DNA of 64,000 nt from an uncultured Planctomycetota bacterium (GTDB lineage: Bacteria > Planctomycetota > Planctomycetia > Isosphaerales > Isosphaeraceae). The position numbers and the translations under genes were made by a program. Each line of letters begins with the position of its first letter. Position 1 is the first letter of the stretch. Location: NCBI GenBank assembly GCA_963823665.1, contig CAWGMQ010000004.1, forward strand, positions 992,001-1,056,000. Reading direction: 5' to 3'. The notes beneath the pieces were generated by a model. The model saw only the letters and a program-made list of their open reading frames with translations. It made no database searches and had not been told where the DNA came from. Positions 27,950 through 38,468 of this stretch are shown here, piece by piece.

Positions 27950-28260
27950 CTATTTCTTTGGCCCAGACGCGCTTACTACAGGCTGGGCGTTGGGCACGCT
28001 GGGGGCCGTATCTGCCTCACGGACCGAGAGATCGGCGTAGATGATCCGATACGTCTTGGCATCCCGCGGTCGATACCAGAAGACAGGTGTATCGGCTGCG
28101 CCAACCTTGACTCCTTGGCCCGCGTAATGCGCGTCGGCTTCCCGCGACAGTTGTTCGAAGGCAAAGGAGAGGCCACGGACAAACTTGAGCATCCCGTTCA
28201 GTTGTTCCTGCCTCTCTTCTTCGCTAGGACCGTCTTTCATCGGGTGAGACTTTGCCCAAT
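27950..28260 (-). pseudogene. C-terminal fragment of a planctomycete hypothetical protein
   Basis: HYAGQGVKVG...PVFWYRP...YRIIYADLSV resembles the end of longer proteins; no convincing 5' part. Confidence 0.5.
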
Positions 28261-28359
28261 CCTCTTGGAAACTGGTTTTCCCCCCTCGAATTCGACTCGG
28301 CGACTCCGGCCGAGTTCGAATTTCGGCGGGTGGCACGAGACTTTCAAGCAGTAATCGGG

Positions 28360-29090
28360 ATGCTCAAACCCTTGGATATCGCGCCGGATCCGCCCGGTGT
28401 CGCCTCGGTCGAGTTGAAGATTCCAGGATACGAGGTCCTGGGTCGCATTCATGACGGGGCCATGGGCACTGTGTTCAAGGCCCGGCAGATCAGCGTTGAT
28501 CGGATCGTCGCCATCAAGGTCTTGGGGGCGACCTGGGCACGCGATGCGGACCACGTTGAGCGCTTCTGCCGCGAGTCGTTGGTCATCGCACAACTGATCT
28601 TGGTGCCACGTCGTTTCACCTCGTCACGGGACGCGTCCCCTACGGCGGCAAGTCCGTCGCCGAGGCCATGCACCGACACGCGAGCGCGGATCCCTCTGCC
28701 CGCGCCGGAATCGCTCAACTTCGCGCTCACCAGCGGCTTGTGCGCCATCGTGCGGAAGTTGATGGCCTGGAATCGAGAGGACCGCTACCGCAGTCCAGAC
28801 GACCTGATCTTCGACCTCGCGCGGATGCTCCGAGGCGCTGGTCCACTGATCGCCGAGTTCGCGCCGGAAGCGCTCGCTCCGCTCGCCATTGGTGAGGCCG
28901 CGGGCGCGCCGCCGCCCGGTGTGGCCGTGCCTCGGCCGCGCTGCGGAGCCGACGCCCAGTTCCCGACCGGCGACGCCACTGGCGCTCTGCCCGTCTGGGT
29001 TTCGCTTCTCCTGTTCTCGGGCATGACCCTCTCGCTCTTGATGACCGCCGCCGTCCTGATCGTGGTGTCGGTTGATCGGTCCGCCCGCGC
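28360..29090 (+). pseudogene. Collapsed Ser/Thr kinase with TM helix
   Basis: IPGYEVLGRIHDGAMGTVFKARQ...VAIKVL...RFCRE, then KLMA..REDRY (subdomain XI) and a TM helix; catalytic core missing. Confidence 0.7.
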
Positions 29091-30136
29091 TACTGCGACG
29101 CGCGTTTGCGCCGCTCCGCGAGCCAGTCTTTCCCCTGTTCCTTCGTCAACGTCGAGAACTGGGCGTCGATGTCCGGGCGCTTCGGCATGCCGCTCTGTTC
29201 GCACGCGAGCCCCCGGCGCACCATGCCCTCGGTGTCGCCAGCCCAGTTCTCCGAGGCCAGCCCGTTTGCCAGTGCGACGAAATACCAGAGCCGCGCATCA
29301 TTCGGGTAGACCTGGACGAGAGTAAGAAAAACGTCGCGCACCGCTGGGTATTTCCCGTCGCGAAACAGAGCGGCGCCGAGTTCCCTGGTGATGTCAGCCG
29401 GGCTGACCTGACCGGGCGCAGAGCGCGATACCATCGCAGCCTTCAAGGCATTCAACGATGCATCGAGCTGCTTTGGTACGGCGGCGACCTCCGTGCGGAG
29501 GGCGTTCAGACCCTTGTCCAGCGCATCGACGCGTTGGCGGAGTGACTCGAATGTCGCCGGTAGCGGGGAGAGCTTTTGGCTCTCTTTGACGAGGTCGTCG
29601 ATTCTCATCCGCAGCGGCGCGAGGTCGGGCGGCGCGGGCGGCGCGTTGGTCCTTGCGTTCAGACGGTCTTCGAGCCGGGCGAGCTCGCGCCCGAGCGTGC
29701 CGAGCTCCGACTGCACTTCGCCGATGCGCGACGTCAAAGCGTCCATTGCGCTCTTTGAGGCCTTGGCGTCGATTGCACGCACGACTTCGCTCATGGGTGA
29801 ATTCGTTGCGGCCCTGGCGGGGGGTTCCGTGCGTGCGGCGCCCTTCCGCGCGGCGGCCCATCCCGCGAGTCCTCCGCCCAGGAAGAACACGATGTTGCCG
29901 GCGATGACCACGAGGACGACCGGCAACGATGCTCGCCGCTCGATCACGACGCGAGGCGAAGCAGGGGCTCCGGCGAGGCGCGGGGGTAGCGGTGCATCGC
30001 GAGCAGGAAGCGACCGAGCGTGTCTATTGGACGCGGGGGATTCCGGGACGTCGAAGAAGTCGGGCGGTAGTCCGCCCGTCGACGAGAGGGTCTCATCCGT
30101 CTCGAGCGGGTTGCGGTTACTCGGGTTTTCTGCCAT
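29090..30136 (-). CDS. Single-TM coiled-coil protein with C-terminal TPR-like helices
   Basis: TM VVLVVIAGNIVFFLGGGLAGW, heptad-rich middle, YPNDARLWYFVALA. Confidence 0.7.
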   Translation of the reverse strand: MAENPSNRNPLETDETLSSTGGLPPDFFDVPESPASNRHARSLPARDAPLPPRLAGAPASPRVVIERRASLPVVLVVIAGNIVFFLGGGLAGWAAARKGAARTEPPARAATNSPMSEVVRAIDAKASKSAMDALTSRIGEVQSELGTLGRELARLEDRLNARTNAPPAPPDLAPLRMRIDDLVKESQKLSPLPATFESLRQRVDALDKGLNALRTEVAAVPKQLDASLNALKAAMVSRSAPGQVSPADITRELGAALFRDGKYPAVRDVFLTLVQVYPNDARLWYFVALANGLASENWAGDTEGMVRRGLACEQSGMPKRPDIDAQFSTLTKEQGKDWLAERRKRASQ

Positions 30137-30403: not shown

Positions 30404-32317
30404 CTACGGGCCACCAGCCCGGTCGACGGCGCCGCCGGACCGGGCCGGGGCCTTTGCAGGCGGCATCGGCCGGAGCCAACGCAAGGGATTCGCGGCACGC
30501 CCTCTTTCGCCGATCGCATCCGTGACCAGGCGTTCGCAGACGAATCGCGCCTCAGCGAGAGACAAATCGCCCCCGAGGCCGGCGGTGATCACGATGACCG
30601 GGAAGATATTGAGTCGCTCGAGGTAGGCGGGCTCGCTCTCCAGGTGGACCGCCGCGACCTCGCTGAGAGAGATCAAATCACCCATGGCGGTGCGGAGATG
30701 GCTCTGGACGAGCCGCTCGACCTCGCTTCGGCCGGCGGGGTCGATCTTCAAGAGAATGGGCCACTCTCGCCCGACGACCTGGATGTTGCCGGCCTGCACG
30801 GAGCCGAAGACCGCCTGAAGCGATGCGGAGACGTCGGGCAGGGCCAGGCCCAGCCTCGCCACCTTGGCCCGATCGATATCCACGGCGTACGTCGGCACCG
30901 GACGCGGGCCGGCCCACGCGTCGGTCAAGCGGGGGTCTCGCGACATTTGCGCTACGATCGTGTTAGCCAGTTCGCGCAAAGGTTGACGGTCGAACCCGCA
31001 GAGCGCAAATTCGATGGGGTAGCCGGAGCTCCTCGATCGGGCGTCGCCGGACAGGTCGCGCATCCGGATGGAAGCCGACTTCTCCGTGGCGATGCATCGC
31101 GTACGGATCTCACGAAGGATGCGCTCACGGTCCACCGCCGCCCCGTCCACCTGAGCGAGCCCCACGACCAGGCATGGTTGGTTGCGGTCCCGATCGAAGG
31201 GCTGCCCCGAGAGCGCCAGCACGTGGCGAACTCCCGGGATCTCGCGGAGCAATTGGTCGGTGCGGGCAAGAAGCTCGCGAGGGGACTCTTTCGGGCCGGC
31301 GGAGCGCAGGTTCACATCGAGGAGCAGGTGGCCGGGCGTTGCCGGCGCCGTGAATTCGAATTCGTCCGACAACTCGAGTCCTGGCGGCAACAACTCCCGC
31401 AATTCAGGCAATCGGTCCCTCACGGCGGCACTCACGGTGTGCGGGTCCGCCCCCGCCAATGCGTGGACCTCCAGCACGGCGACGGAGTTGCCGTCCAGGC
31501 TCGCGAAGCCAACCAGATCCTCGTTGCTTCGTATGATGGACTTCACGTCGTCGATGCGGATCGCGGTGCCGTTTGGATCGGACTTGATCGCGATCGACCC
31601 GAGCTGATCCATTTTCAGACCGCCCCGAGCGTTCGGCGTGAACTGGAATCCCCCGCGCGGTCCGGACGTCGCCTCGAGTGCCTGCTGTTCGATCGCACGC
31701 TTCACGTCGAGGACGGTCAATTGATAGGCTGCCAGCTTCTGCGGGTCCAGCAGGATTCGGGCGGACATGCCATCGCTACCGTGGAGGGTCACCTCCGCAA
31801 CTCCAGGCACGCGAGCGAGCTGGGGCCTGAAATAGACTGAGGCGAAGTTATTGAGATCCGAGGAGATATCGGCACTTCTGTCGGTCGATGAGACGGTGAG
31901 CAGCATGACCAGGACGGGCGACGCTTTCCTGACGGTGACCCCGAGCCGTCGGACGTCCTCGGGCAGCAGGGGCATCGCGTCGTTCACCCGGTTCTGGACG
32001 AGCATCTGCGCCAGGATCGGATTGGTGCCGCGCCCGAAGGCGATTTCCAGCGAATACGAACCGTCGCGCCCGCATCGCGAGCGCAGTCGCTCGAGGTTTT
32101 CGACGCCATTGATCTTCGCTTCGAGGGTGAACGCGACCCGCTCCTCGACCACCGAAGCCGGCATACCGGGAAACCGCGCCTCGACCGTAAAGGCGGGCAG
32201 CTCCTGGGCGCCAGCGGCCCGCATGGAATTGATCAGGAGCCCGGCGCCCAGCCAGACGAGAAGCCCGGCGCCCAGGCAAATGACGGCGAGAGCTGCACGA
32301 CGCCGCGTGCGGACCAT
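30404..32317 (-). CDS. AcrB/RND-like protein with periplasmic domains only and a single N-terminal TM/signal
   Basis: PN1-like (TVEARFPG...INGVENL...VQNRV...LLPEDV..GVTVRK), PN2/DN-like (LARVPGVAEV, LDPQKL), then directly PC-like (LREIPGV, DIDRAK..LGL); no further TM helices. Confidence 0.75.
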   Translation of the reverse strand: MVRTRRRAALAVICLGAGLLVWLGAGLLINSMRAAGAQELPAFTVEARFPGMPASVVEERVAFTLEAKINGVENLERLRSRCGRDGSYSLEIAFGRGTNPILAQMLVQNRVNDAMPLLPEDVRRLGVTVRKASPVLVMLLTVSSTDRSADISSDLNNFASVYFRPQLARVPGVAEVTLHGSDGMSARILLDPQKLAAYQLTVLDVKRAIEQQALEATSGPRGGFQFTPNARGGLKMDQLGSIAIKSDPNGTAIRIDDVKSIIRSNEDLVGFASLDGNSVAVLEVHALAGADPHTVSAAVRDRLPELRELLPPGLELSDEFEFTAPATPGHLLLDVNLRSAGPKESPRELLARTDQLLREIPGVRHVLALSGQPFDRDRNQPCLVVGLAQVDGAAVDRERILREIRTRCIATEKSASIRMRDLSGDARSRSSGYPIEFALCGFDRQPLRELANTIVAQMSRDPRLTDAWAGPRPVPTYAVDIDRAKVARLGLALPDVSASLQAVFGSVQAGNIQVVGREWPILLKIDPAGRSEVERLVQSHLRTAMGDLISLSEVAAVHLESEPAYLERLNIFPVIVITAGLGGDLSLAEARFVCERLVTDAIGERGRAANPLRWLRPMPPAKAPARSGGAVDRAGGP

Positions 32318-32460
32318 GGTCGATGCCTCGGGGTGACTACCCTCTGTGGGCGCAATTCTCTCTTGCGGACTCCATCCACGACAAGGGGCGACTGGCCGCC
32401 CGCCGCCGGCCCCGGGTGGTGGGTCGCTCACCCGGGTTTTCGCTCGGTCGGCAGGGGAAG

Positions 32461-32588
32461 CAAGACACCCACCCTTTCGTCGGGAATCAAAGATGAAACC
32501 GTGCGGGGAAGAGCGCAGCCGGACACCCATTCTCGCCGTGTGATTCATCCAGGGCTGCCTCAAACTCGCCAGAACGCTGGGTGTCTTG
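32461..32588. mobile_element. ~128-bp MITE/REP-like element with 11-bp terminal inverted repeats, copy 1
   Basis: CAAGACACCCA...TGGGTGTCTTG; a similar copy at 34027. Confidence 0.7.
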
Positions 32589-34026: not shown

Positions 34027-34183
34027 CAAGACACCCACACTTTCGTCGGCAACCAAAGATGAAACCGTACGGGGAGAGGAGCAGCCGGACACCCGGTCTC
34101 TCCGAGTGATCCATCCATGACGGCCTCAAACTCGCCAAATCGCTGGGTGTCTTGAGTCCCCGCCAAATCGCTGGGTGTCTTGA
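34027..34183. mobile_element. MITE/REP-like element copy 2 with duplicated right end
   Basis: Same TIRs (34027-34037, 34144-34154); CGCCAAATCGCTGGGTGTCTTGA occurs at both 34133 and 34161. Confidence 0.7.
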
Positions 34184-34385
34184 ATCTCTGGTTCTTTCCG
34201 GAACTTGATTCGTGCGGATCACTCACGATGCACCCTGGCGGACCTCGCCTCAGGCTGCTGAAGATTTCAAGGTCTCACCACTGGCCTCCACGTCAGGGAT
34301 TCGTGAGACTGGCTCTTGGAGACAACGGGCCGTTAGGGCGAGAAGCGTCACGACTACACACCACCTGAGCGCCCTAGAGAACCCG

Positions 34386-35731: not shown

Positions 35732-36918
35732 CTAAGCCTCATTGTCTTCGGCGCACCTCTGGCCATCGGAGAATTGGGGGAAGGAAAACTTATAGACTCG
35801 TCCGGTATGGTCTCCCACTACAAGAACTGCATCATCGGATGAGAGGGCCATGCCGCGAAAATCACGGTTTCCATACAACCTGGCCAAGACTGACCCGTCA
35901 CGTAAGTTCCAGACTCGTAACGGGCTAAATTGCGAGGCAAACAAGGCGTTGTCACCCTCCGATGTGACACAAACACCAGTAACCATTGCGCCGGACCACT
36001 TGTGGGTGTGTGAACGTTGACCAGTGCTCAGGTCGACGACTACAAGGGTACGATCCTTTTGTGACCCGGAAATGGCCCTGTCTCCCTGGGGCGTCAGAAC
36101 TAATGGAAGTGCATTCCAATCATACTGTGGTGAAGCCGCCAGGCACTGGCCAGTGGTCAAATCCCAGATACGGAACCCGTCCGACGCCGAGGAGATCGCT
36201 CGATCTCCTGAGGGCACCATCGCTAACCCCCATACCCAGCCGAGTTCCAGCGCAAGCGGCAGCCCCCCGAGCATATGGCAGATGGCCAGGGCGTAGTGTT
36301 GCTCCGGGTGGGCCGGAGCAAGCGTGGGCCGCCGGCTATCGTATCGGAGCAATAGACGCAAGGCAGCGTCCTCGGGGAGGACCGTGACTTCGATTGATGG
36401 AGACCGGCCGAGCTCGCGTTGGCGAGTGGTGAAGAGGATTGGACATGGGAGGTTCAAGATAACGAAGCCGGGGGCAATTTCCCGATTCAACTTCGATGGG
36501 TCGTCCAAATTGTCGAGGATCAGAAGGGCGTCGGGTTTCCGCTTCATCTCCTCGATCGCGACACGGACATCCTTGGCCGGGTTTTCGCTCGATCGTGTCC
36601 GACCCCGTAACCGCACCGAGTCTTGCGAAGCTTAGCTCAAGTTCCTCGGCGGCGTTGACCCAGAAGACCCCACCGGGGTAGTCCTTTCGATACCGATATG
36701 CATATTCGACCGCCAATTGAGTCTTGCCGATGCCCCCCATGCCGGTGAGGCCTATGGGCCGGATGCCCGCGGGCTCTCGCCTCTTGAGAGTGGCGTGGAG
36801 TGATTCGAGCTCGTCGGAGCGGCCGACGAAGTCGAGGTTCCTGAGGAATGGCACGAAGAAAGGTGCCTGGCCCGCCGAGGTGTGACGTCCTGTCCCCGAC
36901 GGGCCTATCGAAAACTTT
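35732..36918 (-). pseudogene. NB-ARC (STAND) NTPase fused to residual WD40 repeats; frameshift near 36630 and internal deletion near 36240
   Basis: FVGRSDEL, GMGGIGKTQLAVEYAY, LLILDNLD, LFTTR and LGGLPLALEL, immediately followed by WD40-like repeats (RAISSASDGFRIWDL). Confidence 0.85.
36869..36918 (-). promoter_or_regulatory. Candidate -1 ribosomal frameshift cassette
   Basis: mRNA GAA-AGU-UUU-CGA-UAG; a 12-bp stem GGCCCGUCGGGG/CCUCGGCGGGCC begins 5 nt after UUUU; the -1 frame is open into NB-ARC. Confidence 0.55.
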
Positions 36919-37565
36919 CGAGGGCCCTCCGGACTGCGTCGAGTCCCGGGCCAGTTGCACTCTCCACCCAGCGGATGAGCTCGGCGACGTGTTCGGGGAC
37001 TGTGCCGTGGCGACTCACGTGAGACGCCGACCCTGGAATCGCGGTGACGAGTCGGGCCATGTCGGTGGGGTCGAACTGCTCCAAGGTTCGCACCAGTGAT
37101 GCGCGATCGGAAACGGGTAGCTCCCCGTGGAGGTCGTCGCTGTGCCCGCTGGGTGAATTGCGGGCGGGGGGGAATGCGATGCCTCAGACCCCAGACGCTT
37201 TACAGCCTCTCGAATCCCCTTGCGACGTCCGCGAATGCCTCGTCGCGGTTGGACCAAGTCGTCACCGCCTTACCGTCCTTCGGTAGGGCTTGGAGCTTCC
37301 CGAATGGTGCCTCTTGCCAAGCGTCAACAGGGCGCAGTATCACCGGGATGACGCGCGCCTCGCCCGCGTCGTTACGCTCAATGGCACGCTTCATTTCGAG
37401 GTCGTAGCAGTAGTCCGAGGCCACGAAGTCAGGGCTGACAAGCAGCAGGATCACTTCTGCCGAGTTGAGATGTTGGTCGATCTGCCCCGCCCACTCGGTC
37501 CCCGCCCCGATCATCCTGTCGTGCTACTCACGGATAGCCCCCTGACGCTTCAGTATCGACAGTTG
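36905..37565 (-). pseudogene. TIR domain plus small helical adaptor (effector-associated-domain-like); 5' truncated, one nonsense codon, two frameshifts
   Basis: LSILKRQG..*HDRMIGAGTEW, ILLLVSPDFVASDYCYDLEM, VIPVILRP and ALPKDGK motifs; C-terminal AELIRWVESATGPGL. Confidence 0.8.
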
Positions 37566-37622: not shown

Positions 37623-38468
37623 CTATCCGAAGTAGCTGCGCAAGCTGGGCACTGGCTCATTGCCGATCAGGTTAGGTCGCCGAGAACCAAGGCGGATAAG
37701 CTCGGCGACTGATCTCCCTACCCCGTCTATGCCGGGAAACAGAGCGTTCGCGGCAATATTCATCGAGCGGAGTCGCCGAAGAAAATCACTCTTGAACATT
37801 TGTGGTATTATTATTTTTTGGTAATTTACAAATTTCGATTTTTTTTGCTTTGAGAAAAGACCTGAGATGACTTCGCCGTGGTCGCTGAGTGGATCGCGAC
37901 AGATGGTAAAGCATCCTTGTTGAGCCACCATGCGATCGGTGTTGAAACCACGTCGAAATGCGAAGATCCGCTGGGCCGCTTTGGGCTTCTGCCAGTATTC
38001 ATCCGGAAGTAGATTCGGCTTCGAGTCTCTTGCGAAACGCTGAGCAGAGAGAGAAGCCAGTCGATCAGCATCGCAAATCCAGACGGCACCGTCCTTTTCC
38101 CAGTGATCTTCCACGGCAAAATAGGCCGCCACGTAGGGCGAATCACTCCAATCAAGAAGGCGGGTTGGAACTCGATAGTGCTGCATCAAACTCCAGAGCT
38201 CGATGTCCGAGAGATCAATAAGGTGAGGCGGAAGATATAAGTGAGCCTGAGTCATAAATTCGTTTATAGCTAAAGCCTCTACTTTCAGCATTTCAGAGGA
38301 AGTGTAACCGCCTTGAAGGCGTGACAGGGAAGGCTTTAATTCCCAGCTTTCATCGGCTTGGCCACGGTAGATATACCAGGGAGATGCGGTTGCCTCGATG
38401 CTTGAAAGCTTGTCGAGTCGGTCACGGAATTCGTCCCAGCTACCAACAGTTATCGAGGGCCAAGGCAT
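37623..38468 (-). CDS. FRG domain protein
   Basis: IYRGQ, LMQHYRVPTRLLDWS..PYVAAYFA, RMVAQQG.F and LFPGIDG motifs; visibly more AT-rich than the flanks. Confidence 0.92.
   Translation of the reverse strand: MPWPSITVGSWDEFRDRLDKLSSIEATASPWYIYRGQADESWELKPSLSRLQGGYTSSEMLKVEALAINEFMTQAHLYLPPHLIDLSDIELWSLMQHYRVPTRLLDWSDSPYVAAYFAVEDHWEKDGAVWICDADRLASLSAQRFARDSKPNLLPDEYWQKPKAAQRIFAFRRGFNTDRMVAQQGCFTICRDPLSDHGEVISGLFSKQKKSKFVNYQKIIIPQMFKSDFLRRLRSMNIAANALFPGIDGVGRSVAELIRLGSRRPNLIGNEPVPSLRSYFG

Follow-up and report, generated by a model that had tools for sequence, protein, structure and literature searches.

How an immune-type receptor could be produced from a gene whose effector part ends in a stop codon and whose nucleotide-binding part is encoded in a different reading frame is the question raised by a locus in the genome of an uncultured planctomycete. 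The window analyzed here is a 64,000-nucleotide stretch of DNA from a member of the family Isosphaeraceae (class Planctomycetia) and is part of a 16.5-Mb genome in 12 contigs (referred to below as G000). The initial annotation had described a TIR-plus-adaptor ORF on the minus strand, followed in the -1 frame by an NB-ARC ORF, and had proposed that the two are linked by programmed -1 ribosomal frameshifting. The geometry of this junction is as described. A re-reading of the sequence finds GAA AGT TTT CGA TAG at the start of minus-strand positions 36919-36869, with the stop codon at 36907-36905; translation and Pfam matches place NB-ARC in the -1 frame, where no stop interrupts positions 36950 to 36339 and the translation continues from KFSIGP... 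into the NB-ARC P-loop; and the expected hairpin, whose 12-bp stem contains two G-U pairs and closes a loop of 13 nt, lies at 36905-36869, 5 nt past the T run. In this -1 frame, the first GTG comes 19 codons past the slippery site and the first ATG is already inside the P-loop. The folding energy of a 76-nt region is -34.9 kcal/mol (z -3.24), a stability equaled in 2 of 200 shuffles. The -1 product is 64% identical over 102 amino acids to an in-frame fusion (L012), and the junction of locus L005 is identical to that of a locus from a genome of the same family. The parts of the window locus, in the order of the minus strand, are listed below.

37623..38468, minus strand: intact FRG-domain gene directly upstream (Pfam FRG, E 7e-25; PADLOC PDC-S15, E 2e-48).
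37200..37562, minus strand: TIR effector remnant (Pfam TIR_2, E 5.6e-10; tblastn with P0020 and the L012 fusion).
37105..37221, minus strand: Pro-rich linker in a frame that differs from those of the TIR and the adaptor (three-frame translation; tblastn).
36905..37105, minus strand: 66-aa four-helix adaptor, EAD-like and death-fold-like, ending in ESFR-stop (homologs, structural model, fold search).
36911..36914, minus strand: putative slippery tetramer U_UUU, consisting of the last base of AGT and the Phe codon TTT (sequence; relatives).
36906..36910, minus strand: 5-nt spacer CGATA, overlapping the 0-frame stop (sequence; relatives).
36869..36905, minus strand: 12-bp GC-rich hairpin with a 13-nt loop, a putative stimulator (fold; covariation).
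36612..36911, minus strand: -1 frame, encoding a linker peptide and the N-terminal half of NB-ARC with the P-loop (identity to L012; Pfam).
36242..36590, minus strand: C-terminal half of NB-ARC, fused directly to WD40 at about 36240 (tblastn).
35732..36235, minus strand: partial WD40 beta-propeller sensor (Pfam beta-propeller, best E 5e-11).

The TIR and adaptor, initially taken as a single ORF, are separated in the window copy by two frameshifts (three-frame translation and tblastn), one near a G4 run at 37219-37216 that breaks the TIR frame and the other at about 37170 to 37108. The TIR has also lost its first ~30 residues and carries a TAG codon (37526-37524) in place of a conserved Trp, the NB-ARC frame is shifted once more near 36610-36590, and about 280 codons are deleted at the NB-ARC/WD40 joint (~36240) relative to the protein P0130. 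The initial annotation had already cautioned that this copy is decayed, which comparison with intact relatives bears out; with its 5' truncation, nonsense codon, three extra frameshifts, and ~280-codon deletion, the window copy is a pseudogene and is very unlikely to be functionally active, which leaves its relatives as the basis for judging the mechanism. Short public contigs run uninterrupted across the breaks near 37216, 37110-37170, and 36600, whereas the nonsense codon and the junction are matched without difference by contigs that extend fewer than 31 letters on one side; none of these contigs reaches across the deletion joint at about 36240, and one run (X1) may represent the source sample itself. 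The NLR-like order of effector, NB-ARC, and repeat sensor, seen as Pfam remnants in the window, is intact in loci L017, L023, and L372, in agreement with the architecture proposed initially, and from this domain content an antiviral role would seem plausible. The FRG gene (PADLOC PDC-S15) ends near the expected start of the TIR and may have displaced it. Elsewhere in the window, an intergenic tandem 26-nt direct repeat (96% identical) occupies positions 34133-34186, and a kinase-like remnant recognized by eye (28252-29325, no Pfam match) and a shortened 719-aa AcrB-family ORF (30404-32563) suggest more decay nearby.

The adaptor provides a handle on these relatives, 10, 41, and 194 of which were found in separate searches (150 of the 194 being among the matches listed); it was detected in 1 of 401 genomes of the phylum and 5 of 401 genomes of the class. 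Its model consists of four helices (pLDDT 93), and its fold matches are mostly to death folds of the CARD, DED, and PYD types with middling Z scores of 5-6, a match to FAN1 scoring higher (Z 7.0). Neither the Pfam EAD models (at E<=1) nor NCBIfam gave a match, and EAD1 or EAD7 is present in 10-77% of the members of its Atlas neighbors, with a recognition score below the mark set by the tool. This small all-helical domain occurs in both of two architectures, effector-adaptor and adaptor-core, being C-terminal to TIR, CHAT, PNP, hydrolase, kinase, or EAD1 domains and N-terminal to STAND NTPases, a placement that matches the pattern reported for EADs by Kaur et al. 2020 (PMC7159879). Six loci (L008, L009, L011, L016, L023, and L227) carry at least two copies of the adaptor, one terminal and one N-terminal to the sensor; some N-terminal copies retain the 5' arm of the hairpin as an in-frame GPSG, and the proteins P0081 and P0124 each contain four or more copies in tandem. 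C-terminal motifs of the form [NSD]F(x) or [NSDGRH]P, directly before the stop, end 75 of 119 terminal adaptor proteins versus 5 of 58 other C-termini. Distant relatives, seen as proteins only, end in PNFR or NP, a hint of the same motif in other lineages.

After de-duplication, the adaptor was terminal at 18 close-family junctions and at 3 distant junctions, and several further copies were either fused or N-terminal (L006 and L007, partial and weak matches, were excluded). Among the close-family adaptor gene ends, 15 of 18 have T_TTY (10) or C_CCT (5) as the last or nearly last codon. The distant ends of L104, L112, and L115 lack the signal, which makes the tally 15 of 21 when they are included; L115 comes, like L114 (in which the adaptor is not terminal), from cyanobacterial plasmid relatives. 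By comparison, neither tetramer is found at any of the 39 distinct ends obtained for other CHAT, TIR, and PNP ORFs in G000 (from 50 loci, of which 10 had an ORF extending past the edge of the locus and 2 had a common end). Overall, 23 tetramer junctions were collected, with T_TTY in 10 and C_CCY in 13. Codon choice at these sites is peculiar: CCT is used at 12 of the 13 C_CCY sites and makes up only 11% of the Pro codons in the window ORFs, and a T-ending Ser, Asn, Asp, or Phe codon precedes Phe at all 10 T_TTY sites (AGT accounts for 6% of Ser codons in the window ORFs). A search for homologs with the layout proposed initially thus recovers the slippery motif, the stop, a covarying hairpin, and the -1 ORF, with a Z_ZZN tetramer (U_UUY or C_CCY) in place of the heptamer. 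A full X_XXZ_ZZN heptamer is present in 6 of 23 junctions and absent from the window, so that A AGT TTT does not hold up as a slippery heptamer. Nor is it to be read as the canonical A AAT TTT with one base changed: AGT-TTY recurs in L013, L027, L030, and L012 and is, being common to these four relatives, a normal form rather than a damaged heptamer. The tetramer is kept without a hairpin in L004 and L105, and the hairpin without a tetramer in L011 and L035. Words resembling a Shine-Dalgarno sequence, an optional 5' stimulator, precede 8 of 23 junctions, similar words being found also in adaptor copies that are not split.

The second constant element is the hairpin, which in the relatives begins about 5-6 nt past the tetramer. 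A 12-pair stem is 86% paired over 16 aligned junctions and a 9-pair stem 95.4% over 17; none of 500 shuffles reached the covariation score in either alignment, and sliding the stem out of register lowers pairing to 29-48%. Changes on both sides are seen in 4 of the 9 core pairs, including two changes private to L015, and a class-wide change from G-C to A-U probably represents one event. Since the junction sequences are related, these counts, like those for the tetramer, overstate independence. An 8-bp arm, fully paired and at the same offset, is present in 17 of 23 junctions; the span is 35 nt in 15 of them, 32 nt in one, and 36 nt in another (L375, which has no recognizable -1 product). The loop is free in sequence and nearly constant in length. 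The RNA of the cassette has no match in Rfam at E<=1.

Past the hairpin, the -1 frame is open for at least 90 codons in 17 of 23 junctions, compared to 5 of 23 for the +1 frame. Its predicted products include NB-ARC-TPR (L017, L023, and L372), NACHT (L030 and L223), NB-ARC (L015 and L222), and APAZ (L224) proteins, as well as proteins with a membrane helix and a carboxypeptidase-regulatory domain (L024 and L027); the remaining ORFs have no assigned domain. The product of L017 scores above the NCBIfam FxSxx_TPR cut-off, and PADLOC models gave no match to any of the five NTPase or sensor parts compared with them. The -1 frames of L009, L013, and L025 (3 of the 11 adaptor junctions that have both tetramer and hairpin) are shorter than 40 codons. 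Before the first ATG, NB-ARC pairs differ mostly at third codon positions; the L024/L027 pair shows just 3 changes, all of them non-synonymous, and one other compared pair was misaligned. In L027, a conserved membrane helix precedes any start codon, and in L012 and L031, which are in-frame fusions, the -1 peptide serves as the linker. Taken together, the conserved motif, the covarying hairpin, the open -1 frames, the fusions, and the reuse of the cassette elsewhere (see below) support the frameshifting proposed in the initial annotation, and the junction is very probably a programmed -1 frameshift cassette.

Several other explanations of the split have to be weighed against this one. The effector and the sensor could be two genes under translational coupling, in which the sensor start overlaps the stop of the effector and the hairpin does no more than regulate re-initiation. 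Such coupling may co-occur with frameshifting in one gene cluster (PMC3711429), and 6 of 23 junctions indeed have a start codon, TTG, no more than 13 nt from the stop. The other 17, however, including every TAG and TAA junction, have no start near the stop; the constant feature is the distance from tetramer to hairpin, whereas the stop shifts by 0, 1, or 4 codons after the tetramer; and the choice of the rare CCT and of T_TTY would be left unexplained, which makes this reading improbable. A different proposal would be that the hairpin is a transcription terminator or mRNA stabilizer behind an effector gene and that the genes beyond it are inserts unrelated to the effector. A strong stem that overlaps the stop codon would suit this view, and in L004 and L105 the effector-adaptor gene stands alone, with no recognizable product in the -1 frame. 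Nevertheless, a T-rich tail (at least five T in the 10 nt past the stem) is present in 0 of 23 junctions, and the window stem receives no terminator call. Furthermore, in the in-frame fusions the stem is translated, and a loop that varies in sequence, is held in length, and is read as protein fits a translated stimulator rather than a terminator; this alternative is accordingly highly improbable.

Fused versions of the gene (L012, L031, L225, P0016, P0030, and P0062) and the other lesions borne by many copies, including that of the window, would also be expected if the split went back to one ancestral 1-nt deletion followed by the spread of pseudogenes, or if the slip took place at the DNA or RNA level, through phase variation or transcriptional slippage. 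Against this, the same layout is common to two tetramers, to several effector families and unrelated downstream families, and to two bacterial families, the -1 ORFs are intact over up to 948 codons, and the runs are mostly 3-4 nt, which is too short for the usual slippage tracts, so that neither scenario appears at all likely. As to an assembly indel in the window, other split genes do occur in G000, such as the PNP genes at L213/L217, L219/L221, and L222. The same split, however, recurs across many independent assemblies and is therefore not a sequencing error, and a 155-nt public contig covers positions 36780-36934 with no difference or gap (it has only 20 letters upstream of the T run, below the 31-letter rule); the chance of an assembly artifact is negligible.

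With programmed -1 frameshifting as the preferred reading, the cassette could work as follows. It would comprise about 45 nt, namely, U_UUY or C_CCY in the frame of the effector, a 0-frame stop 0-1 codons after it, and a GC-rich hairpin. The majority of ribosomes would terminate at the stop, releasing the short effector (plus the adaptor, where present). A minority would stall at the hairpin, allowing the Phe or Pro tRNA in the A site to re-pair one base back, and the slipped ribosomes would translate through the hairpin into the sensor module (NB-ARC-TPR/WD40, NACHT, APAZ, or membrane domains). The slip rate is presumably low, with the full-length receptor making up a few percent or less. In E. 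coli, motifs of the T_TTY and C_CCY classes rank second and third among tetramers, and frameshifting at tetramers is weak, amounting with an IS3 pseudoknot 5 nt downstream to 0.26-5.6%, the best rates requiring a pseudoknot (PMC4066793). Upon activation, the long form might recruit numerous copies of the short form by contacts between adaptors or between effectors, by analogy with EAD and death-fold systems. In this way, the cassette may set the effector:sensor stoichiometry.

The cassette is not confined to genes that encode the adaptor. A covariance model built from the adaptor junctions alone was run over 121 genomes of the family, and 4 of the 20 new hits examined proved to be cassettes in genes without the adaptor. 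One of these (L222, G000:C10:733500-742000), a second cassette in the genome of the window, consists of PNP, A_AAC_CCU at junction 3313, the hairpin, and then a 949-aa NB-ARC ORF, an indel breaking the PNP frame shortly upstream. In the others, CHAT is followed by an 808-aa NACHT ORF; PNP is followed, at L224:2854-6130, by the cassette, an APAZ-type ORF, and a short pAgo (PADLOC pAgo_I, E 3e-171); and EAD1-trypsin forms an in-frame fusion through an upstream indel. A rebuilt model (R3), run over the family plus 121 genomes, mostly from other families of the class, yielded 4 more cassettes among 26 hits examined: one between TIR and NB-ARC-TPR, one behind caspase-bDLD3 (L373:2267-5440, in which the cassette precedes a 170-aa ORF and a TPR gene and has a C-G swap at the base of the stem), and two in TIR genes of another family, with -1 ORFs that have no assigned domain. 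In total, 8 of the 46 RNA-model hits examined were cassettes and the other 38 were not. All eight lie behind an effector domain (TIR, CHAT, PNP, caspase-bDLD3, or trypsin), a feature invisible to the model.

Simple DNA patterns were less informative. Loose patterns occur at chance levels, with 24 matches versus 20 for the control in G000 and approximately the control level over the 121 family genomes, and among 111 pattern matches in viral contigs, 0 of the 80 with flanks passed a filter for a stop plus a long -1 frame. The strict pattern of C_CCT, stop, and hairpin is absent from 301 Planctomycetota genomes, almost all of them outside the family; the RNA model did detect weaker variants of the cassette in two genomes from a different family, so that it is known from two families of Planctomycetia. 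The TIR-adaptor/NB-ARC layout to which the initial annotation had tied the signal is thus real and too narrow, since the cassette also occurs without the adaptor and ahead of domains other than NB-ARC. With eight cassettes behind unrelated effectors, the signal looks like a portable effector-to-sensor switch in Planctomycetia, and we consider it somewhat more probable than not that it is a recoding module shuffled among unrelated immune genes, which would provide many effector or adaptor subunits per sensor from one locus.

Programmed -1 frameshifting in bacteria has so far been described mostly in mobile elements and in a small number of genes with cellular functions. The present data, if correctly interpreted, would add a new class of cellular users, in which one cassette is reused over unrelated immune genes, being shuffled among NB-ARC and NACHT NLR-like receptors, a short Argonaute system, a caspase-bDLD3 gene, and membrane sensors. 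Such genes would be the bacterial, single-gene equivalent of inflammasomes and myddosomes, in which amplification relies on a receptor plus an adaptor, and would offer EAD and NLR systems a direct means to set the effector-to-sensor ratio and to amplify a signal without self-poisoning. Annotation pipelines would then be missing the full-length receptors and labeling them as split genes; since gene callers never report the predicted proteins, catalogues of defense systems would lack these receptors.

Tetramer frameshifting, as in the IS3 family, and EAD-STAND systems are each already known, and what would be new is their combination. The literature consulted, with subscription journals mostly outside its scope, yielded no paper that joins the two. 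The main texts of PMC7159879 and PMC8195603 never use the term "frameshift", and it is incidental in the accessible text of PMC13581612 and 10.1101/2022.07.19.500537; the main text of PMC3711429 mentions no NB-ARC, NACHT, or TIR, and its supplements may bear on novelty. The cassette resembles the signals of the IS3 family in its U_UUY and C_CCY motifs, in the 5-nt distance to a 3' structure, and in its predicted output, a short protein from the 0 frame and, more rarely, a -1 fusion, and differs from them in being located in chromosomal immune-type genes rather than transposases and in having a predicted simple hairpin rather than a pseudoknot; its commonest motif, C_CCU, is weak in E. coli (PMC4066793). 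As in dnaX, copA, csoS2, and Mg-chelatase genes, one gene would give rise to two products, one short and one long, that share their N terminus. Each of those cases, however, is tied to one family, whereas the cassette is found behind unrelated effectors and before unrelated sensors, and frameshifting in E. coli dnaX, copA, and csoS2 produces the short form, whereas here it would produce the long one (PMC5009743).

The EAD and bacterial death-like systems share with these loci the small helical adaptor, C-terminal to effectors and N-terminal to STAND NTPases, and the TIR, caspase/CHAT, PNP, and trypsin effectors (a genuine bDLD3 precedes one of the cassettes); the papers on these domains, in the text available, describe separate genes (PMC7159879, PMC8195603). 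The STAND receptors of the Avs, bNACHT, and FxSxx-COOH TPR families have the same effector-NTPase-repeat architecture and, unlike the split genes found here, are described as single ORFs. Short pAgo systems usually take the form of a fused TIR- or SIR2-APAZ protein. Locus L224 follows the order of these systems (an effector-APAZ protein plus pAgo) in that its effector is followed by an APAZ-type region and then by a short pAgo; unlike in the usual short Argonaute systems, its PNP and APAZ parts are joined only via the -1 cassette.
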